Below, piece after piece: positions 54,388 through 64,000 of a stretch of DNA of 64,000 nt. The translations under genes and the position numbers were made by a program. How positions within the stretch are numbered: the first letter of the stretch is position 1; each line of letters opens with the position of its first letter. The notes below the pieces were generated by a model that saw only the letters and a program-made list of their open reading frames with translations, searched no databases and had not been told where the DNA came from. Origin of the DNA: Candidatus Nealsonbacteria bacterium (GTDB lineage Bacteria > Patescibacteriota > Minisyncoccia > Minisyncoccales > JANBVM01); contig CP179887.1 in the NCBI GenBank assembly GCA_047456295.1, positions 175,159-239,158 on the forward strand, written 5' to 3'.

Positions 54388-56814
54388 TTAGGTAATCTCT
54401 GCTATTTCCAGAATCTTATCAGCAAACTTGTCGCAATAATCATGACAAGTGAATATTAATACCTGATGGTTTTTCGATAATTTCTTGCAGAGTTCTAAAG
54501 TTTTCATTCGTCTATCTTTATCAAAATGAGTAAATGGATCATCCATAAAGATTGGTGGATTTTTGTTGGGAACAAGAATCTCCGTCAAGGCAAATCTTGC
54601 AGCTAAATAAAGCTGATCAATGGTTCCACTCGAAAGTTCCTGTGAAGAGCTACTGACATCTATCCAATCATCTTTCTTATCGGACCATAATACAATGTCT
54701 AAATTTTCTCCAAGTTTTATTTTACTGTACTTTCCAGCTGTAATATGCGATAAGCTTTTTCCAATTTTTTGACTCAATGTTTTTGAAATATCTTTAATAG
54801 TTTGAACTCTGGCTTTCGATATCATATCCATAACTATATCATTAATCCCGGTCTTTCTGTTTAATTTATAGATTTCTTTTTCTTTAAAGGTAACTTTTTC
54901 TTCGAGTTCCGCAACATCTTCAACTCCTATTCTTTTATTTTCCTTAATAACCATCTCTGAAAAACTTTTTTTTGCTTCTAAATTCGGGGTGGCCTCTTTA
55001 AGGTTTTTGAGCTCCCCTTCTTTTCTTATAAATTTTTCAGATGTACACTTAAACATCTCTAATTCATCTAACTCAGCTTTACAAATTGCTAGCTCCTTAA
55101 CAACTTTCTCCTGTTCTTTTTTCAAATCGTCTTCTTTTTTTAACTCTTTTAACGCACCTAAACTTTCATTTGTCGATCCTTTTAATTCTTCACGCTTTTT
55201 TTCTAATCTTTCTACTTCTTTTTCCAAAACTTTTATTTCTTTATCCGTAAGTGAATAATTTTTTAATTTAGCTAATTCTTTGTTTAACAACTTTATCTCT
55301 TCACTATATTTCTTTCGCTCAGTCTTTATTTTTTCTAATGTCCCGTCACCTAAAATCGTTTTGTATTCTATACTTTTTTTACTTTTTGATTCTTCCAATC
55401 TTCGAAGTTCATTCCAAGCATTTTTAAGATATTTAACGTTCGCAACTTCATATCTTTTGAATAAAGATTTTAGAACGCTTTTTTTCCGACGAAGCTCTTC
55501 AAATAATTTTTGAATCTCTTCCTTTTTATTTGAAATATCAATATTGACTAAATCTTTAACTCTGAGATTTATAAGTGATTTCCCAGATATTTTCAGCTTG
55601 TTTTTAGCTTTTAATTCCTGGGTTTTTTTAGGGAGATTATCAATTTTAAAAGAAAGTTTCAATTTTTTGTTTGGGACTAAGGAGACTACTATTCCTTGTG
55701 ACGAAAGCGCTTTTTCAAAATCCTCTATTTCTTTCGGTAACGAGAGAGCGTTATTATAATCTTTCTCATCAATTTGTTTTTTTTGAGAAATTTTCGTTTC
55801 AATATTTACCATCTCTTCTTTTAAAAGATCGATTTTCTTAATATCTTCTAATAATTTCTTTTCGTCTTTTACGTAACTATTCTTTTTGTCAATAATGTCA
55901 AGGAAAGATTTGCCTTTATCAAGATTTTCTTTTTTAATCTTCAGTTTTTCTTCAATTTTATTCAACTCTTTAGAGTCTCTACTAAGTTTTTCTTTGGCTG
56001 TCTTTCCCCTTTTTTTTATTTTTGCTAGTTCATTATATTTACTCGATAACTCATCAAAGTGTTTTTTACTATTAATATATTTCTTTGCATTTTCTATAGC
56101 TTTTGTTTTAATTTTAATATTTTCTTTCAGTTTCGGTAATTTCTCCGAAATTCGAGATAGTTCAATTCTATGTTCCTCTAGTTCGCCGACTTTGTTTTTT
56201 AACTCCCTGAGTTGAATACCTAATTTATGTAATTCATCTTCTGATTTTTTGATCGGCCCAAGATTTTTAAGCCCTCCCTTCTTTAATCCTCTATTTTCTT
56301 TTTCTAATAGCTTTAAAAGTTCACTTAGATCAACGCCACCACCTGAAATCTTTTCATCTAAAAGCGTTTTAATTTCGGGTAGTCCGCTATCAATCTTCTT
56401 GATTTCATCCTGAGTTATACATATTGTTGATATAAAACACTTCTCGGAAGGTAATCCTATTAACTCAATAAGTTTTTCTTGAATCCTTTTTTTATCCTTT
56501 AAAGTTAATCCCCTCGGTAGAGTTAAAATATTCTTTTTGTCTTCATAATCTCTTGTAAGAATGAAAGTTTCTTTCCCGCGTTGAAGATGTAACTCTATCA
56601 GAAATAATTTATCTGATTTCCATCTTTTTTGTACTTTAACGTCTGAACTAGTAGTGGTGGCGTCTCCAAAAATAGAAAGCTTTATCGCGCTCAATAGTGA
56701 TGACTTTCCTGATTCGTTTGGTCCTTTTAATACAATAAGGCCCTGAGGAAGATCCTGATCAAAGGTTTTTAAGTTGCGGAAGTCTTTAATCTTTATTTTT
56801 TTGATAATCATCAA
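54388..56814 (-). CDS. sbcC: SMC/Rad50-like coiled-coil ABC ATPase (SbcC / YhaN-like), no CxxC zinc hook seen
   Basis: Walker A GPNESGKSS, about 550 aa of K/E-rich coiled coil, signature LSSGTIDQLYLAARFAL, Walker B PPIFMDDPF. Confidence 0.85.
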   Translation of the reverse strand: MMIIKKIKIKDFRNLKTFDQDLPQGLIVLKGPNESGKSSLLSAIKLSIFGDATTTSSDVKVQKRWKSDKLFLIELHLQRGKETFILTRDYEDKKNILTLPRGLTLKDKKRIQEKLIELIGLPSEKCFISTICITQDEIKKIDSGLPEIKTLLDEKISGGGVDLSELLKLLEKENRGLKKGGLKNLGPIKKSEDELHKLGIQLRELKNKVGELEEHRIELSRISEKLPKLKENIKIKTKAIENAKKYINSKKHFDELSSKYNELAKIKKRGKTAKEKLSRDSKELNKIEEKLKIKKENLDKGKSFLDIIDKKNSYVKDEKKLLEDIKKIDLLKEEMVNIETKISQKKQIDEKDYNNALSLPKEIEDFEKALSSQGIVVSLVPNKKLKLSFKIDNLPKKTQELKAKNKLKISGKSLINLRVKDLVNIDISNKKEEIQKLFEELRRKKSVLKSLFKRYEVANVKYLKNAWNELRRLEESKSKKSIEYKTILGDGTLEKIKTERKKYSEEIKLLNKELAKLKNYSLTDKEIKVLEKEVERLEKKREELKGSTNESLGALKELKKEDDLKKEQEKVVKELAICKAELDELEMFKCTSEKFIRKEGELKNLKEATPNLEAKKSFSEMVIKENKRIGVEDVAELEEKVTFKEKEIYKLNRKTGINDIVMDMISKARVQTIKDISKTLSQKIGKSLSHITAGKYSKIKLGENLDIVLWSDKKDDWIDVSSSSQELSSGTIDQLYLAARFALTEILVPNKNPPIFMDDPFTHFDKDRRMKTLELCKKLSKNHQVLIFTCHDYCDKFADKILEIAEIT

Positions 56815-56815
56815 T

Positions 56816-57940
56816 TTAAAGCTTTAATTTTCCTAGAAGCAGTGCAACTCCCTTTCTGAGCGCTTCGTCATATATTCCTTTTCTTTCTTCTGGTAACTTT
56901 TTAATTTCTTCTTTTAAAATTTGAATAAAATTATAGCCGATTGTTTTTGCAGGAAAAAGGTTATCCACGTTTGTTGGAATATCAGAATGTACTTTTGAAG
57001 AGTCTATTCTTAAAAAAGCGAAATTATTATTTAGTTCATTCTCTAGTTCAAAAAAATCAATAGAGTTATCCAAGCCTACTAAACCCTTTAAATGAAATCT
57101 TACTATTTTATCCTTTCCTTGATAATCAAGAATTTTCTTTTTAAGACTATCGGCCGTAGGATAGACTGAAGTATCAATATTAATTTCTTTCCAATCATAT
57201 TTACCTGTCTTTATTTTTTCTATGTTACAGATTTTTTTATCTAATTCTATTAGTAGTACAAAACCAGATTTATCTCTGTCTTCAAATTGTAATGTTTCAG
57301 GTGAGCCTGAATACCACGCTTTTGTTTTGCCAAGGGAATACTCGGCGCATTTATGCCAATGTCCTAAAGCTATATAATCCATTCCGCTATTCTCAATCTC
57401 CTTTTGATTAATTATATACTCATTCGGATTATACTTCCCTTCTATCTTTATGGAACCGTGAGCTAAAGCAATATTTAGAGCCGTTTCTTTACTTGGCTTT
57501 AATCCTTTTAACGGTGACTCTGAACCAAAATTTGTTATATTTGCTTTACTATGAACAGCAATATCTAACTCTTTAAAAATCTTTGTGGTTGGTTTTGGAT
57601 CTTTTAAAATAGAAACATTTCCTAAGTTATGAATAAATTCATCACGCCTATATACCGAACTTGAATCATAACAATCATGGGTTCCCGGAATTATACAAAC
57701 AGTGATTCCTTTTAATTTTTTAAAATTGTCTATAACGTATCCCAGTAAATCTGAAGAAACCTTGTTTGAATCAAATAAATCTCCAGATATTAATAATAAG
57801 TCTATTTCTTTCTCTATTGCTAACTCAATTATGTTCGAGAATGTATTTTTAACTGTTTCTCGAAGCTCTTTTCCAAACTCAGAAAGAAATTTAAATTCTC
57901 TTCCTAGATGTAAATCTGCAGTATGTAAGATCTTAATCAT
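56816..57940 (-). CDS. sbcD: Mre11/SbcD-like metallophosphoesterase nuclease
   Basis: ILHTADLHLG, SGDLFD, GTHD and GHWH calcineurin-like motifs. Its stop lies 1 nt before the ATPase start. Confidence 0.85.
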   Translation of the reverse strand: MIKILHTADLHLGREFKFLSEFGKELRETVKNTFSNIIELAIEKEIDLLLISGDLFDSNKVSSDLLGYVIDNFKKLKGITVCIIPGTHDCYDSSSVYRRDEFIHNLGNVSILKDPKPTTKIFKELDIAVHSKANITNFGSESPLKGLKPSKETALNIALAHGSIKIEGKYNPNEYIINQKEIENSGMDYIALGHWHKCAEYSLGKTKAWYSGSPETLQFEDRDKSGFVLLIELDKKICNIEKIKTGKYDWKEINIDTSVYPTADSLKKKILDYQGKDKIVRFHLKGLVGLDNSIDFFELENELNNNFAFLRIDSSKVHSDIPTNVDNLFPAKTIGYNFIQILKEEIKKLPEERKGIYDEALRKGVALLLGKLKL

Positions 57941-58020: not shown

Positions 58021-58836
58021 TCATTTTTTTGATTTTTTTAATTTTCCGCCTATAATTTCAAAAGCTTTTTTAATTTTCTTAAGGGTTTCCGAGTAATCTT
58101 CATTCCCTGTTTCAATTCGAAAGGGCTCGTAGTCAATGATACGAGAGTTTTCATCCATAATATGAACACCAATATCAAAAGATGTCCTATGGGGAGCTAA
58201 CCAAGAAAACTGACGACCTCTATATTTGAAGCCCACATAACTTTGAGTCGCATATTCTTCAATGTTCTCCCCAATATTTTTAATCTCTTTTCTAATTTTC
58301 TCAAAGAGTGGTCTAAGGGGCTTTTTCATTACATAGTTTTTCAACTCTTCAATTGTTTTTGGTCTCGAGGGAGCTTTTTCGACCTCAGGTAAAGAAACCT
58401 GATGGTAACATAGTCCCTGTTTCCCTTCATTTGTAGAAAGCACTGTGTGCTCATAAAGTTCTATATCTGGAACTACAAGAGTGCTAAGTCTCCTAATATC
58501 ATCAGAGAAATTCTCTGCAATCAATACTATGCGTGGATGCTCATTGGGGTCAATTTTCTTATCAGGAAACATCCCTGCAATAATATATCTTTCTTGATCT
58601 ATTGTATTGTAATACCTTAGTGCTTGAAATAAAATATTTTCATCTTCCTGGAGTTTAACTTCAATAATCACAAGACGACCACCACTATCTACGCATAAAA
58701 AATCAGGTATCCCTTTCAGGCTGTCAAATTCGTATTTAATAAGAATCAACCCCTCTTCAAGAGCGTCAAGTTCTTTTTCTATTAAGCTGTGTAGTTCTTT
58801 TTCGTCTTTTATCTTAATTTTCTTTAGTATCGCCAT
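58021..58836 (-). CDS. PD-(D/E)xK nuclease, NucS/DUF91 (Shedu-like) N-terminal domain plus uncharacterised C-terminal domain
   Basis: LEEGLILIKYEFDSLKGIPDFLCVDSGGRLVIIEVKLQ...FQALRYY (D...ExK...Q..Y). Confidence 0.7.
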   Translation of the reverse strand: MAILKKIKIKDEKELHSLIEKELDALEEGLILIKYEFDSLKGIPDFLCVDSGGRLVIIEVKLQEDENILFQALRYYNTIDQERYIIAGMFPDKKIDPNEHPRIVLIAENFSDDIRRLSTLVVPDIELYEHTVLSTNEGKQGLCYHQVSLPEVEKAPSRPKTIEELKNYVMKKPLRPLFEKIRKEIKNIGENIEEYATQSYVGFKYRGRQFSWLAPHRTSFDIGVHIMDENSRIIDYEPFRIETGNEDYSETLKKIKKAFEIIGGKLKKSKK

Positions 58837-58897: not shown

Positions 58898-59710
58898 CTA
58901 TTTTTGTTTAGACAGTTCTTTAATAAAATTTTCAAGCAACAAAGCACTTAATGCGATTTGCCTTTTATCTAAGCGTGAAACAGTTTCATATAAAGTTAAC
59001 TTTTTCCGTTTTTTCGTTTTTTTCTGAGACACTATCCAGACAACACCATCTAAGATTGCTACTCGGAGAGCTTTCTTTCCTTTGTTTTTAATAAAAGCAA
59101 TTGTTTCTCTGAATCCTTTATGTTGAGTCCCTCCGCTTGCAGTAATGAATTTAGCCTCGCCGATTATAAAACGATCTTTTATTCTTAAAACCATATCAAG
59201 ACCTTTTTGTCCACGATAACCTAATTCTTCTTTTGCAAATTTCTTCAATGTAGCATCACCGCCATCTAATATTGCAATATTCTTGTATTTTAAAAAATTA
59301 TCTTTAGCTAAAACAGGATATCCTAGCACGGATAGCCATTTTTTAAACATCTGCCCTAATTGACGAGAAGGAGATTTAGGTCTACTTGCCCCTATAAAAA
59401 TTTCCTTTAGGCCCATGCTGAATAGTCTTTTTCCTATACGCTGAATTGTTTTTGGATTCTTATCTAATGCTTTTCGATCTTTTCTCAAGAAACCAATATA
59501 AGGATCGTCTATGGGAAACCTTTTAAGCTCCAATAAAGCCGAGATTAGATTTTTCTTATTTCTGGTCTTAAATACCTTTTTGATTCTTTCTTTTTCTTCT
59601 GGCTCTATCTTTCTCGGTAAGGTTAAATCAATAGGATATATTTTCGTTAAATTATCAAGATATTTCTCAGAACTAGCCAAAGTTATGCTCTTTTTGACCC
59701 ACTTATTCAT
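58898..59710 (-). CDS. putative type II restriction endonuclease (PD-(D/E)xK)
   Basis: 270 aa with GLDMVLRIKDRFIIGEAKF (D...EAK). One-nt overlap with the methyltransferase gene. Confidence 0.55.
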   Translation of the reverse strand: MNKWVKKSITLASSEKYLDNLTKIYPIDLTLPRKIEPEEKERIKKVFKTRNKKNLISALLELKRFPIDDPYIGFLRKDRKALDKNPKTIQRIGKRLFSMGLKEIFIGASRPKSPSRQLGQMFKKWLSVLGYPVLAKDNFLKYKNIAILDGGDATLKKFAKEELGYRGQKGLDMVLRIKDRFIIGEAKFITASGGTQHKGFRETIAFIKNKGKKALRVAILDGVVWIVSQKKTKKRKKLTLYETVSRLDKRQIALSALLLENFIKELSKQK

Positions 59711-60882
59711 TATAATAATTGTTGATTATTAACAGGATTAATTTTATTAAAATATATATAATTTATAAATTTGTAAACAAAATCAAAAGATACTCTTTTT
59801 CTGTTATTGTCTCGATAATTCGTCAGAAAGAGCGATAAATATTGGTCTCTCATTTTATTTAATTCTTGATTAAAAATATCGATAATCTTTTTTTGTTTTG
59901 CAATGGGGATTTTCTCCTTGAAAATAAGATGAATCATATGACGCGAAGATTCTTTGCTTATTAAACATTTAACGCCATATTTCCTTATATCTTCAAGAGA
60001 AATCTTGCCATTCTCCGTACCACTATCAATTGCTTTTAAGAAAATTATGTTTGACTTTATCGCATTGTAGAAATCTTCGGAAACTTTTATTGTTTTAGTA
60101 TCTTCTATGTGATTATGTGCAATTGGTATCTCTATCTGGCCTCTTTCTTCATCAACATCTTTTTCAACTAATCTATAAATCCCTAGCTCATTTTTTTGAT
60201 TCTTAATAGTATCTAAAAAATCACCGTGTATGTTCCAAGAACAATTCCTTTTTAATTTAATATTCAATATTTTATTCCCTGGATAAATACGCGTCTTAAT
60301 AGAGAATCTATCGTTTAGAGGATTTTTCTTCTTTTTATAATAGAACGCTATTACATTATTGGTGGTATCAGAAAAAACTGGATGTGTAAAATAATTCATT
60401 TCTACTATCTCAAATTTATGAAAGAATATATTTTTAATTTTTCTTGAATTTCTAGCCGATAAAAAATTTATTGGAACAATAACAATCCCCTCTTCGCTAT
60501 TAAGAATAGAGGAAAGAGAAATTTGGTATAAATCTTCAAATTCAAACTTGCTGAAATACTTTCGCTTTGTCTTTTTATTAGCTTTGTTAATGTTTAAATA
60601 AGGAGGATTAGTTAGAACAAATTTGTACTTTAATGGATTTAAGAGACTATCATTTAAAAAAACATCTTTGCCATTTATGCATCTGTTATCAATATCGTAA
60701 CCTATTACCTTTTTTGCTTTGTTGCGTCTTGCCCAATCAATTAAATCTCCTTCTCCAGCAAAAGGATCAACAATTTCTTTGCCTTCAATATATTTATCCA
60801 AATTTTTCAAAATGTAATTTGAATTTTTAGTCAAAAACTGCCCAAGTTGCTTTTTTTGTTTTATTGCTTGTTGTGATGACAT
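59710..60882 (-). CDS. N6-adenine DNA methyltransferase (gamma class, TaqI/Eco57I-like)
   Basis: LGQFLT (motif X), DPFAGEGDL (motif I), LTNPPYL (motif IV), and a C-terminal target-recognition region. Confidence 0.85.
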   Translation of the reverse strand: MSSQQAIKQKKQLGQFLTKNSNYILKNLDKYIEGKEIVDPFAGEGDLIDWARRNKAKKVIGYDIDNRCINGKDVFLNDSLLNPLKYKFVLTNPPYLNINKANKKTKRKYFSKFEFEDLYQISLSSILNSEEGIVIVPINFLSARNSRKIKNIFFHKFEIVEMNYFTHPVFSDTTNNVIAFYYKKKKNPLNDRFSIKTRIYPGNKILNIKLKRNCSWNIHGDFLDTIKNQKNELGIYRLVEKDVDEERGQIEIPIAHNHIEDTKTIKVSEDFYNAIKSNIIFLKAIDSGTENGKISLEDIRKYGVKCLISKESSRHMIHLIFKEKIPIAKQKKIIDIFNQELNKMRDQYLSLFLTNYRDNNRKRVSFDFVYKFINYIYFNKINPVNNQQLL

Positions 60883-60885
60883 ACC

Positions 60886-61158
60886 TTAAATATATTTCTG
60901 TTTTGGATTATATTTATCACGATATATTTTTTCCCATCTCTTCGCTTCTTGAGTACTACTTGTTGATTTATATCTAATAGTAGTAATGCCACGTTTAGTG
61001 TTTAATTGCTGTTTGATGCGGGTTTGTAAATTACCAGCATCTGCACTACCTACATACGGCAAATTATTCCCTCTATATAATAAATAAGCTCCTGACTGAT
61101 TGGGAATATCAGATAAGTTTTTAATTGTTGGTCTTAATTTTTTACTTAATTTTGCCAT
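60886..61158 (-). CDS. minimal GIY-YIG nuclease-domain protein
   Basis: 90 aa: GAYLLY...LPYVGSA...LQTRI...EAKRWE...KYNP. It ends 3 nt before the methyltransferase start. Paralog of 23612..23905. Confidence 0.7.
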   Translation of the reverse strand: MAKLSKKLRPTIKNLSDIPNQSGAYLLYRGNNLPYVGSADAGNLQTRIKQQLNTKRGITTIRYKSTSSTQEAKRWEKIYRDKYNPKQKYI

Positions 61159-61190: not shown

Positions 61191-61802
61191 TTATAACTTT
61201 TTAATCATTTTACCGATCATTTGCATTTCATCAGTAAAAAGAATAATTTTATATTTAGGATTTTCCGGCTTTAAAAATTGATATGGGGGTTTGTCGTGGG
61301 AAATAAATCGCTTGACAGTAGTGCCATCAGGAGTCCGGACTAAAACAATATCTCCAGAAGAAAACTCATTTGTTTTTTTGAATAAAATCAAATCCCCGTC
61401 CTCGATACCAGCCCCTATCATTGAATCTCCAATAATTCTTGTGACGATTACATCATCAGAAATAATTTCTGTATCTTTTGATAAAGGCATCCAAGCATCA
61501 ATCTCTTCTATGGCTTCAGCAAAATCACCTGCTGAGGTAAAACCAACTATTGGCACTAAGGGTCTGACATTGATCGCTTTATAACCTTTCTTGAGAATTT
61601 TAATACCGCGAGCCAAAGCCTCACTTCTTTTAATGGTCCCTTGTTTCTTTAGTTTAGTCAAAAGGTCAATAATTGACTGATTTGAAGAAACATTTAACCT
61701 TTCTCTCATCTCCTCAAAAGTTGGTGGATAGCCAGTATCTTTTATATATTCGTAGATAATAGATAATAGTTCTTTTTGTCTTTTCGTAATATTTTTCTTC
61801 AT
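61191..61802 (-). CDS. lexA: LexA-type repressor (wHTH plus S24 autopeptidase)
   Basis: TKRQKELLSIIYEYIKDTGYPPTFEEMRERLNVSSNQSIIDLLTKL (LexA DNA-binding domain), GDSM (Ser) and VKRF (Lys). The ORF opens at 61814, but that ATG overlaps the predicted -10, so 61802 is preferred. Confidence 0.85.
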   Translation of the reverse strand: MKKNITKRQKELLSIIYEYIKDTGYPPTFEEMRERLNVSSNQSIIDLLTKLKKQGTIKRSEALARGIKILKKGYKAINVRPLVPIVGFTSAGDFAEAIEEIDAWMPLSKDTEIISDDVIVTRIIGDSMIGAGIEDGDLILFKKTNEFSSGDIVLVRTPDGTTVKRFISHDKPPYQFLKPENPKYKIILFTDEMQMIGKMIKKL

Positions 61803-61812
61803 ATCTTCTATC

Positions 61813-61842
61813 ATAATACCCGACTGTTTAGTCGGGTGTCAA
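61813..61842 (-). promoter_or_regulatory. lexA promoter with a palindromic operator in the spacer
   Basis: The minus strand reads TTGACA-CCCGACTAAACAGTCGGG-TATTAT. The palindrome ACCCGACT-N4-AGTCGGGT (61818-61837) fills the 18-nt spacer. Confidence 0.6.
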
Positions 61843-61920: not shown

Positions 61921-63258
61921 TCAATCTAATTTTTCTTCAATTGTGTAGTTTAAATTAAGAACATTTTGAATAAAAAATGCGTGCCAATTTTTATATACTC
62001 GTATAGACACTTTATTTATTTTAGACACTTCACTATCACTAAATTTATTAATTTCGTTTTTCACAGAATCGCATAGTTTTGCGATGTCAGAAAAAAATAC
62101 ATACTTATTAGGTATTTTGATCGTATCCAAAAAACCTCGTTCAATATTCTTTGGAATTTCGTCTAAATTTCTCTTCCAATATTTTTTCTCTCTATTGCTA
62201 ACAGGATTAACCCTTGACACCATGAAATCTTTCTTCCATTTATAGAAAACTTTCACCGCATCTTCGAAAAGATAACTAGAGATAATTGCTAAATCCAAAT
62301 CAGATCGTTTATGCATTAGTTGACCATATTTTTGAGGTGCGAGCGAATAGCCCAATCTTGCGCTTCCAACGAGCACGACATTTTTAGGGTGGATTTTAAG
62401 ACTTGACGCAATGAATTCTCTTAAATTCTCATAAAATAGAGACGATTTTTGAAATGACGCAGGAATTCCTTCTGATAAAAAACCACGCAAAAGAGCTTCT
62501 TTTCCTTTTTCATCAAGCATTTTTCCTGCTTCTATGAAATTTCGCGGGGATGGATATCTGTCAATAAGCTTTTTATTTACTTCAGATCCTGGCAATAAAA
62601 AATCACGTTTTTGATCTATTTCAACTCTTGTTGTAAGTAAAGCTTTTTCCAACAAAGAAGCTATTTTGTGTCTCCTCTTTTCGAATGATTTTTTCCATTG
62701 ATCTGATTCAATGATTTGTTTTGGGTACCGAATTCTTGTAATTAGTCCTGCAGCCTGCTTAAGAGATAATGTTTCTAGATTACACTTTAAGTCATCGCAT
62801 GCTTTTTCAATTCCTTTCATCTGATAACCAAAATAAGCTATATTAAAATAAATCCCTAACACTTCTTTTTTTCTTAAAACATCTTTGACACATACGGCTA
62901 ATAATATTTCATGGATTTTTCGTCTGATAGTCCGTTCATATCTATTTGTGACAACTCTTATTAATTGTTGCTCTATGGTGCTACCTCCCTGTATTGTTCT
63001 ATGTCGTATATAATACCAAATTACTCGCAGAAGAGCCTTTAAGTCTATGCCTTTATGAGAAAAAAACCTTTCATCCTCTGCTACAACAAGTGCCCGAAAT
63101 AAAATTGGAGGAATTTTTTTCGACAACCTTTTATAATAATAGATAGCTTTTTCCCTTCTTAACCTTAAACGAAGAGCAAAAAGCTCTTCTTTTAATAACA
63201 TATATGCTACTTTATGAAGAATTCTACTCAGAACATCAATACTGTTTGTCTTTTCCAT
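61921..63258 (-). CDS. fusion protein: GT51 peptidoglycan-glycosyltransferase-like domain (no TM anchor) plus minimal nucleotidyltransferase-fold domain
   Basis: All five GT51 motifs are present: EDERFFSHKGID, GGSTIEQQ, RKIHEILLA, KKEVLGIYFN, RRHKIASLL. The C-terminal half has VVLVGSARLGYS-x14-SDLDLAII (a GS...DxD NTase signature). No hydrophobic helix in the first 60 aa. Confidence 0.7.
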   Translation of the reverse strand: MEKTNSIDVLSRILHKVAYMLLKEELFALRLRLRREKAIYYYKRLSKKIPPILFRALVVAEDERFFSHKGIDLKALLRVIWYYIRHRTIQGGSTIEQQLIRVVTNRYERTIRRKIHEILLAVCVKDVLRKKEVLGIYFNIAYFGYQMKGIEKACDDLKCNLETLSLKQAAGLITRIRYPKQIIESDQWKKSFEKRRHKIASLLEKALLTTRVEIDQKRDFLLPGSEVNKKLIDRYPSPRNFIEAGKMLDEKGKEALLRGFLSEGIPASFQKSSLFYENLREFIASSLKIHPKNVVLVGSARLGYSLAPQKYGQLMHKRSDLDLAIISSYLFEDAVKVFYKWKKDFMVSRVNPVSNREKKYWKRNLDEIPKNIERGFLDTIKIPNKYVFFSDIAKLCDSVKNEINKFSDSEVSKINKVSIRVYKNWHAFFIQNVLNLNYTIEEKLD

Positions 63259-63286: not shown

Positions 63287-64000
63287 CTACAACCCCCTCC
63301 TTATCTTCCTTAAACTTTCAATAATAAACGATAGCCAATACTTCTTATTTATCACAAAGTCTTGGGTTTTAACGTATTCTTTGCTTTTACCGCCGAAACC
63401 TTTTTTGAATAAACTCAAACCAAGCCATGGGTGTTTTTTAGCATTATCAGATACAATTCCCCAAAAATTAAATTTCTTACATCCTTTTCTCTTGGCTTGT
63501 TTGATTGCTTCCCAAAGCAATAAATATGAAACAGGAATTTTTGGATGTTTAAGTGAACTAGCACCGTGATGATAAAATCCTATACCCTGCCAGAAAATAA
63601 AAATTCCTGAAGCAACTACTTCATTATTATACTTTCCTAGCAAAATTGAAATCTGACCATCATTAGAAAAAGCTTTAAATTCATTTTTTAAATAATTAAG
63701 CGAAAAAGGCGTAAAATGCTGACGCGTTTTAGTTAGTTGATACAACCGGTTAAACTCTCCAACATCATTACTCGAAATAATTTCAACATTTTCTTTAATT
63801 GCTTTTTTAATAAGATACCTTGTGGTTTTTCGCATATTCTTCAATAATTCATTTTCGCTTGGAGTAATATCAAGCTCCCAGGTTAATTCTGGATGAATAT
63901 GAATTGGTGCATTTCTAAAACCTAATTTTTTAAAAATCTGTTTGTTTTCCTCATTTTTTAACCAAATAGGCGCAATCCTAATAAAACTCACTCCTTCCTC
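63287..64000 (-). CDS. FemAB-family aminoacyl-tRNA-dependent peptidoglycan peptidyltransferase (N-terminus beyond the window)
   Basis: RKTTRYLIKKA...FYHHGASS...PVSYLLLWEAIKQAKRKGCKKFNFWGI...GLSLFKKGFGG. The frame is open to the right window edge. Confidence 0.75.
   Translation of the reverse strand, partial: EEGVSFIRIAPIWLKNEENKQIFKKLGFRNAPIHIHPELTWELDITPSENELLKNMRKTTRYLIKKAIKENVEIISSNDVGEFNRLYQLTKTRQHFTPFSLNYLKNEFKAFSNDGQISILLGKYNNEVVASGIFIFWQGIGFYHHGASSLKHPKIPVSYLLLWEAIKQAKRKGCKKFNFWGIVSDNAKKHPWLGLSLFKKGFGGKSKEYVKTQDFVINKKYWLSFIIESLRKIRRGL

Follow-up and report, generated by a model that had tools for sequence, protein, structure and literature searches.

What does a glycosyltransferase of the GT51 family do when it has no membrane anchor and is joined to a nucleotidyltransferase (NTase)-like domain? 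GT51 enzymes are extracytoplasmic cell-wall polymerases and antibiotic targets, and the question is raised by a gene of a Candidatus Nealsonbacteria bacterium, found near the end of the 64,000-nucleotide stretch analysed here (contig CP179887.1 of GenBank assembly GCA_047456295.1, positions 175,159 to 239,158 of the forward strand), which we call the window. We found that the gene encodes, as a single chain, the two proteins of a widespread cassette of two genes with neither a family model nor a name. We give a probability of about 0.4 to the reading that the cassette is a mobile conflict module (defence, abortive infection or toxin-antitoxin (TA)-like), in which the GT51 component would act on lipid II at the inner leaflet and the NTase-like component would gate it. 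The parts of the gene are as follows.

61921..63258, minus strand: fused GT51-like and NTase-like gene, 445 aa, from the list of open reading frames (ORFs) and the genome look-up
63121..63258, minus strand: N-terminal helical segment, aa 1-46, amphipathic and charged, not a transmembrane (TM) helix or signal peptide
62659..63120, minus strand: GT51 (Transgly) domain, aa 47-200, from Pfam, PDB and Foldseek matches
63076..63078, minus strand: codon of E61 in the ED of motif 1, the first catalytic Glu, aligned to the Aquifex PBP1a context
62908..62910, minus strand: codon of E117 in the RKxxE of motif 3, the second catalytic Glu, from the PDB alignment and the module alignment
62587..62658, minus strand: inter-domain linker, about aa 201-224, predicted to be flexible
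61936..62586, minus strand: C-terminal domain, aa 225-441, a core like that of the minimal nucleotidyltransferases (MNT) with helical additions
62362..62367, minus strand: G298-S299, the GS of the NTase signature, invariant in 122 sequences and aligned to the GS of MNT
62293..62304, minus strand: S319-D320-L321-D322, the SDxD putative metal-binding signature, invariant and aligned to the SDxD of MNT
62125..62127, minus strand: D378, candidate third carboxylate in predicted strand beta3 (GFLD), from conservation and the strand in the model

The fused gene and the two-gene cassette

The 445-aa ORF is maximal. Nine codons 5' of its ATG (63258) there is an in-frame stop, and the interval contains no ATG, GTG or TTG, which rules out a missed upstream start or a missed anchor. 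The protein is identical to an NCBI entry of a Candidatus Nealsonbacteria metagenome-assembled genome that bears the name 'biosynthetic peptidoglycan transglycosylase'. Its close homologues are a small clade of fused proteins with 53-60% identity and two proteins that have the C-terminal domain (C-domain) only.

A profile search with the C-domain, covering 1.84 billion representative proteins, defined a much larger family with 1307 clusters (50% identity) at E <= 1e-3, 254 of them at E <= 1e-30. Nearly all of the members are stand-alone proteins of 200-250 aa, and those that have been given a name are all called 'hypothetical'. When we looked up stand-alone C-domain genes, a small Transgly gene was found directly upstream in each case. 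We then scanned one genome per species, which gave 61 loci, and searched for the GT51 ORFs using a hidden Markov model (HMM) of the GT51 subfamily. In 59 of the 61 loci the C-domain gene is immediately preceded by a GT51-like ORF in the same orientation, which overlaps or abuts it; the other two loci are cut by contig ends. The paired genes usually overlap by a few bases, and they encode a GT51 component of ~180-210 aa and an NTase-like partner of ~220 aa. The cassette is sparsely and patchily distributed across the phyla, covering Gamma-, Beta- and Epsilonproteobacteria, Acidobacteriota, Nitrospirota, Desulfobacterota, Latescibacterota, Bacillota, Chlorobium and others.

Fused forms were found in a clade of the candidate phyla radiation (CPR), in Vibrio mytili and in the proteins P0011, P0124, P0152 and P0263. 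The nearest neighbours of the non-CPR fusions among the compared sequences are split pairs, and hence the fusion must have arisen independently at least five times. The linker of the fused protein falls at the position of the stop/start junction of the split two-gene versions, and the full-length AlphaFold2 (AF2) model has its sole long stretch of low confidence at aa 210-228, with a pLDDT of 34-42. The constant adjacency and the recurrent independent fusion, a well-known mark of cooperating proteins, indicate that the two components act together, probably as a physical complex.

The first-pass annotation of this DNA had called the domain combination an unfamiliar one. Our full-text literature searches and PADLOC v2 gave no description of an anchorless GT51-NTase pair either, while the combination turned out not to be peculiar to this genome. 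We rate the cassette as categorically new, as set against PADLOC v2 and the literature only, with a function that we infer.

Several members depart from the usual architecture. A fused member of 634 aa (P0010; locus L076, 1430-3334) carries a further C-terminal extension of ~180 aa that looks beta-rich by eye. A 47% identical relative of the window's fused clade (L007, 7851-9151) has a frameshift in the GT51 domain giving ORFs of 113 aa and 307/335 aa; it adjoins a type ISP restriction-modification (RM) enzyme and is either a pseudogene or an assembly error. An Escherichia coli NDM-4 IncFIB plasmid (NZ_CP050167.1; L077, 4944-5489) encodes an anchorless GT51 protein of 181 aa that belongs to the same subfamily, with an HMM E-value of 1.4e-38 and the signature ARIKYP, and no C-domain partner was found within this 10-kb locus. 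A 271-aa protein encoded 540 bp downstream of it has an N-terminal Cys-x2-Cys...His and looks HNH-like by eye, and a DUF2254 gene lies near this GT51 gene as it does in Vibrio palustris (L008). The plasmid locus may represent an alternative partner or a degraded module. No DNA-level match was found in complete E. coli genomes.

The two components and their cellular location

The GT51 half is recognized with ease. Pfam Transgly (PF00912) matches aa 47-200 with an E-value of 3.8e-37 and 127.9 bits against a cut-off of 27, and the nearest solved relatives are the glycosyltransferase domain of Aquifex PBP1a (2oqo; E 5e-19) and S. aureus MtgA (3vmq). The window protein has motif 1 as AEDERFFSHKG (with E61), motif 2 as GGSTIEQQ, motif 3 as RKIHE (with E117), motif 4 as KKEVLGIYFNIAYFG and the C-terminal motif with R195, all of which align to these two relatives. 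Foldseek with the full-length AF2 model returned 3nb6, 3d3h and 2oqo at a probability of 1.00 with TMt 0.59-0.62. The membrane-contacting jaw region of the canonical GT51 enzymes is kept in length, according to the PDB alignment.

Fifteen positions are 100% conserved in 62 modules, namely E61, D62, H68, G70, D72, G91, S93, T94, Q98, R113, K114, E117, Y137, Y142 and G144. The same modules have signatures of their own: motif 2 reads GGSTIAMQ or GGSTIEQQ versus GGSTITQQ, the Asn of motif 4 is lost and the string ARLKYPxP is invariant. The window protein also falls below the NCBIfam cut-offs, with 85.5 bits versus 182.65 for TIGR02070 (mono_pep_trsgly) and 123.2 bits versus 508.75 for the PBP1A family TIGR02074. 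Judged by the conserved residues, the GT51 component is under enzyme-like catalytic constraint, and its lipid II polymerase activity is putative.

The anchor of the canonical enzymes is absent. The highest mean Kyte-Doolittle hydropathy over 19 residues is 1.14 in the window protein and below 1.65 in all 12 close relatives, and AF2 places helices at aa 4-21 and 23-43, where the canonical GT51 enzymes have their TM anchor. Among the 62 GT51 ORFs, 56 have no TM-like hydrophobic stretch, and many have only a short hydrophobic or amphipathic N-terminal helix. Two acidobacterial GT51 components (L029, 5303-6001 and L040, 627-1361) have an extra N-terminal hydrophobic helix of ~20 residues with its Arg and Lys on the C-terminal flank. 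These positive charges predict an N-out/C-in orientation, opposite to that of the canonical GT51 enzymes, which would keep the catalytic domain in the cytoplasm. The partner carries no signal peptide and, as an NTase, would depend on NTPs, and the fused proteins have no anchor; both parts should therefore work in the cytoplasm. We infer that the pair acts at the cytoplasmic face of the membrane, being at most peripherally attached or tethered N-out/C-in.

The C-terminal half has no such ready identity. The C-domain of the window protein has no match in Pfam, NCBIfam or PADLOC and no NTP_transf_2 hit at E <= 10; sub-threshold NTP_transf_2 matches were seen in 5 of 36 relatives, with a best E-value of 0.011. 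Searches of PDB sequences using the single sequence and profiles of 12 and 122 sequences gave nothing meaningful. The strings VGSARLGYS (G298, S299) and SDLDLAI (D320, D322) are invariant in the alignments of 12, 36 and 122 sequences. D378 (D167 in domain numbering) does not vary among the 12 close relatives and reaches at least 90% conservation across the 122 sequences, in which the invariant residues (domain numbering) include E52, G53, P55, G87, S88, R90, G92, S108, D109, D111 and R209.

Two further lines of evidence bear on the NTase assignment. The AF2 model of the C-domain built from the 122-sequence alignment (pLDDT 93, pTM 0.88) predicts a helix at 62-76, a strand at 83-86, the GS, a strand at 110-115 carrying the DxD, two long helices, a strand at 165-167 with the third Asp, a helix, a strand at 206-211 and a final helix; this is the order expected of a Pol-beta-type NTase core with helical insertions. 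We also built an MNT profile (PF01909/PF18765) from bona fide minimal nucleotidyltransferases, and hhalign of the C-domain family against it gave a probability of 62.8% and an E-value of 7.1e-5 over 78 columns, with the GS and SDxD in register and a 10-residue insertion between them in the C-domain; against a single MNT sequence the E-value was 1.3e-3. The spacing from GS to D is 20 residues in the C-domain, and 9-13 residues is typical of the Pol-beta NTase superfamily. The NTase-like character of the C-domain is moderately supported by its motifs, its topology and a moderate profile match, and is not proven.

Both components have uncharacterised relatives in phage protein families. All of the 36 C-domain proteins match phrog_32008 (best E 5.6e-12) over the SEGIP...GS...DxD region, and the GT51 parts match phrog_33002.

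Most of what had first been read from this gene is upheld by these results. The ORF, the anchorless GT51 half and the GS...SDxD motif all agree with the sequence and the ORF list. The five GT51 motifs with both catalytic Glu are confirmed by the Pfam match and the PDB alignments, the lack of an N-terminal anchor or signal peptide by the low hydropathy and the closed reading frame, and the charged helical N-terminus by the AF2 helices spanning aa 4-43. The GS-x(n)-DxD signature is borne out by its invariance at all three alignment depths. The proposed NTase fold stands in part: the hhalign match, the weak NTP_transf_2 hits and the fitting topology favour it, while no solved NTase structure was matched. 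A kinship with SMODS or CD-NTase proteins, also suggested, was dropped, as neither PADLOC nor Foldseek gave a match to support it. An upstream start was not found, and the model does not correspond to another known fold.

Genomic contexts and possible roles

An all-against-all clustering of the neighbours revealed no conserved third gene, and the sole recurrent neighbours are RM methyltransferases; at least 14 of 73 loci have one at a distance of up to 6-8 kb. Six loci (L010, L011, L018, L051, L073 and L080) have a type III-like N6_N4 Mod gene immediately ahead of the GT51 gene and in the same orientation, and a HI_1054-type helicase gene precedes it in two of the six. This arrangement could reflect a functional connection or an insertion hotspot common to both. 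The commonest Pfam families among 126 immediate neighbours are DDE transposase, N6_N4 and N6 methylases, Type ISP, Eco57I and Mrr; RelE, integrase, RhuM and SRAP also occur.

Several loci were annotated individually. In L081 (6104-10440) a type I RM operon encloses the module, which has a SIR2_2 gene on one side and, on the other, an HsdS gene followed by ThsB-TIR; RhuM and Gp49/HI1420-type TA genes lie upstream of the module. Elsewhere it was found in single loci beside type III RM, ParE and MNT genes, beside type III RM genes, insertion sequence (IS) elements, MNT-HEPN and HicA genes, beside type III Mod, HEPN and HI_1054-type helicase genes, beside a type ISP enzyme and beside a ScoMcrA-type HNH gene. 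An Aliarcobacter megaplasmid carries the module in an island with IS21, DUF4365, PLD, TIR, DUF4917 and HNH-AAA genes. The complete pair is also encoded on two IMG/VR prophage contigs, on one just after the tape-measure and tail genes and on the other between a DNA methyltransferase gene and UmuC-like and Ant genes; a tblastn search of 50,697 GenBank phage records gave no module match.

The neighbours in the window are listed below as context only.

63287..63991, minus strand: FemAB-like gene, the upstream neighbour, cut by the window end (334 aa in the source contig locus L001)
61191..61814, minus strand: LexA-like gene with helix-turn-helix and S24 peptidase domains, the downstream neighbour
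60886-61158, minus strand: 90-aa ORF between the LexA-like gene and the methyltransferase gene, with a weak PADLOC match (PDC-S14, E 0.0016)
59710-60882, minus strand: Eco57I-like methyltransferase, 390 aa, of a type II RM pair (58898..60882)
58898-59710, minus strand: Tsp45I-family restriction endonuclease, 270 aa (PADLOC REase_II, E 7e-59)
58021-58836, minus strand: NucS_C/DUF5655 protein, 271 aa (PADLOC candidates PDC-S18, E 2.5e-12, and PDC-S11)
56816-57940: SbcD-like gene, following the NucS_C/DUF5655 gene
54388-56814: SbcC-like gene, following the SbcD-like gene

The gene thus lies between a FemAB-like gene and a string of lexA, RM and nuclease genes, as first described. In the type II RM pair the stop of the methyltransferase gene overlaps the start of the endonuclease gene. 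The 90-aa ORF contains a GIY-YIG-like string (YLLYRGNNLPYVGSA...R) and has no Pfam or PHROG match. No compositional island was seen in the window, where the GC content is about 0.3 throughout. On the source contig upstream of the gene (L001, 553-6745) we observed, on the same strand, genes for a class II aminoacyl-tRNA synthetase, SerRS, an alpha/beta hydrolase, a 547-aa Mur ligase and the FemAB-like protein. That tRNA synthetase genes adjoin one for an aminoacyl-tRNA-dependent transferase of the FemAB type may have a bearing on cell-wall synthesis in CPR bacteria.

Across the loci, the varied contexts enriched in RM, TA, IS, TIR and SIR2 genes, together with the accessory regions of prophages, lead us to read the cassette as a mobile conflict module. 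The LexA-like repressor, the type II RM pair and the NucS-like PADLOC candidate beside the gene in the window agree with this reading. The GT51 component would be the effector, and once released it would polymerise or otherwise consume lipid II on the cytoplasmic leaflet. Undecaprenyl pyrophosphate would then be trapped in dead-end products that cannot be flipped, the carrier would be depleted and envelope synthesis would stop; dead-end undecaprenyl-linked intermediates are toxic. We speculate that the NTase-like component restrains or switches the GT51 component by transferring a nucleotide to it, much as HEPN toxins are AMPylated by MNT antitoxins. Alternatively, it could be the trigger-sensing domain of a fused toxin-antitoxin. 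We consider it doubtful that the cassette makes up a new class of anti-phage, abortive-infection or addiction systems, in which a glycosyltransferase effector on the cytoplasmic side, under the control of the NTase-like partner, polymerises or sequesters lipid II and the undecaprenyl carrier ahead of flipping and so shuts envelope synthesis down.

Several points weigh against reading the cassette as a conflict module. The enrichment of defence genes around it was seen without a matched genomic control and is suggestive, and several loci have no defence genes nearby, including those of Vibrio palustris (L008) and L079. No model of PADLOC-DB v2.0 matches the full protein, the split GT51 proteins or the C-domain proteins, and neither component is linked to defence by experiment or by a known homologue. 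The gene order, GT51 first and NTase second, is the reverse of that of HEPN-MNT systems, where the NTase antitoxin gene comes first. That a soluble GT51 protein reaches or polymerises inner-leaflet lipid II in vivo is putative. The NTase assignment itself leans on motifs and a moderate profile match, and a Foldseek search with the C-domain model (pLDDT 93) gave no significant match among PDB structures or the viral structures of BFVD, the best one being to the NTase TbTUT4 at E = 1. The Mur-ligase and FemAB neighbours also count here; they were seen only in L001 and in one related CPR contig (L005), and in a third CPR relative, where the Mur-ligase and FemAB genes are absent, PDT lies upstream and a gene for an ImmA-like M78 peptidase downstream.

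The gene order brings up an exchange of roles, which we regard as unlikely, where the NTase-like protein would be the toxin, for example by nucleotidylylating tRNA, and the GT51-like protein the antitoxin or a sensor for the state of lipid II or peptidoglycan precursors at the inner face. MenT and AbiEii toxins nucleotidylylate tRNA or another essential target, and the order seen here agrees with that of AbiEi/AbiEii and MenA/MenT. The invariant NTase catalytic signature would be explained as well, and the genomic contexts are equally compatible. However, 100% conservation of the Glu pair and of all the substrate-binding motifs would be superfluous in a protein that is only an antitoxin or sensor, and Pfam, PADLOC and Foldseek revealed no similarity to DUF1814, AbiEii or MenT.

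The neighbours of the window gene suggest a different role, that of an ordinary or lineage-specific cell-wall enzyme, namely a monofunctional glycosyltransferase that carries an accessory domain and cooperates with the Mur ligase and FemAB in this CPR bacterium. The intact GT51 motifs, the NCBI name and the Mur-ligase and FemAB genes near the module in L001 and L005 would all fit. But a domain that has neither anchor nor signal peptide has no access to the periplasmic side of the membrane, the site of action of GT51 enzymes, and the third CPR relative has different neighbours. Outside the CPR bacteria cell-wall neighbours are all but missing, with one cell-wall-type Pfam hit, a beta-lactamase, among the 126 immediate neighbours. 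The sparse and patchy distribution and the scores far below the NCBIfam mono_pep_trsgly and PBP cut-offs also argue against this role, which we think quite improbable. The first-pass annotation had left a cell-wall role and a defence role side by side; the FemAB/Mur-ligase context is not conserved beyond the two related CPR contigs, and the neighbours elsewhere favour the defence-type alternative. The name 'biosynthetic peptidoglycan transglycosylase' is probably misleading for the GT51 partner.

We regard a module for precursor modification or resistance as very improbable. The GT51-like protein would bind lipid II or a moenomycin-type phosphoglycolipid, and its partner would nucleotidylylate the bound molecule. 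GT51 domains are the receptor of moenomycin, and several of the GT51 PDB structures matched here are moenomycin complexes. Drug-modifying enzymes with an NTase core and a helical domain exist, aminoglycoside and lincosamide nucleotidyltransferases inactivate drugs, and the module is mobile and plasmid-borne in places. However, the module is cytoplasmic and moenomycin-type drugs have their site of action on the outer side of the cytoplasmic membrane, no resistance gene clusters are linked to it and no similarity to ANT or Lnu was found in Pfam or the PDB. Binding alone would not need both catalytic Glu to be strictly conserved.

Just as improbable is a cytoplasmic synthase of a glycan or signal, with the GT51 protein using a soluble, pyrophosphate-linked sugar donor such as UDP-MurNAc-peptide in place of undecaprenyl-PP-linked ones and the NTase providing or processing the nucleotide moiety to give a new oligomer or second messenger: both components look catalytically competent, they are obligately paired and recurrently fused, and GT51 chemistry is established to displace a pyrophosphate-linked leaving group, but the idea is entirely speculative, the membrane-contacting jaw region is retained in length and to our knowledge no GT51 enzyme uses a nucleotide-sugar donor. 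An effector-immunity pair of the type VI secretion system or an endolysin-type function was rejected, as the partner has no signal peptide, CPR bacteria and many other phyla that carry the cassette lack such contexts and the GenBank phages gave no match.

A family of GT51 proteins that is catalytically intact, anchorless and obligately cytoplasmic would, if true, be a new use of the fold. Should the cassette serve in conflict, bacterial immunity and TA biology would gain a new effector logic, namely an attack on the lipid II/undecaprenyl cycle from inside, and the module could serve as a genetic tool for perturbing inner-leaflet lipid II. More than 1300 clusters of 'hypothetical proteins' are now defined as a family with a divergent NTase-like core and no Pfam model. 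The hypothesis can be tested directly through the split pairs of cultivable bacteria, which occur in Vibrio, Pseudomonas, Pandoraea, Alkalimonas and Aliarcobacter.

Relation to known systems

The GT51 component is like the GT51 glycosyltransferases and the glycosyltransferase domains of class A penicillin-binding proteins (2oqo/3nb6, 3vmq/3hzs) in sequence, fold and catalytic motifs, including both Glu. Unlike them, it has no N-in/C-out TM anchor and no signal peptide, and is always paired with or fused to a cytoplasmic NTase-like protein. The family is accessory and mobile rather than core, has its own motif signatures and stays below the NCBIfam equivalog cut-offs.

The C-domain shares with the MNT antitoxins of the HEPN-MNT type VII TA systems the common signature hhGSxARGxx...SDhDhhh with its motifs in register, and both families are found in two-gene operons within TA- or defence-rich regions. 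However, the C-domain is about twice the size of MNT. A helical extension of 60 aa comes before its core, the GS and SDxD are set apart by the 10-aa insertion, a helical hairpin of ~45 aa separates beta2 from beta3, and additional helices follow at the C-terminus; the C-domain gives no Pfam hit at threshold. Its partner is always GT51-like and not HEPN; the HEPN genes found nearby belong to separate MNT-HEPN pairs.

Two further systems are comparable in their design. CapRel-type fused TA defence proteins have no sequence or fold relationship to the window protein, and the analogy is architectural only, in that an effector and a regulatory domain are combined in one chain with split two-gene homologues. 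Zeta/PezT toxins are kinases acting on UDP-GlcNAc and are not homologous to either component, but they likewise work in the cytoplasm and block the envelope through a peptidoglycan precursor, as we propose for the GT51 component of this cassette.

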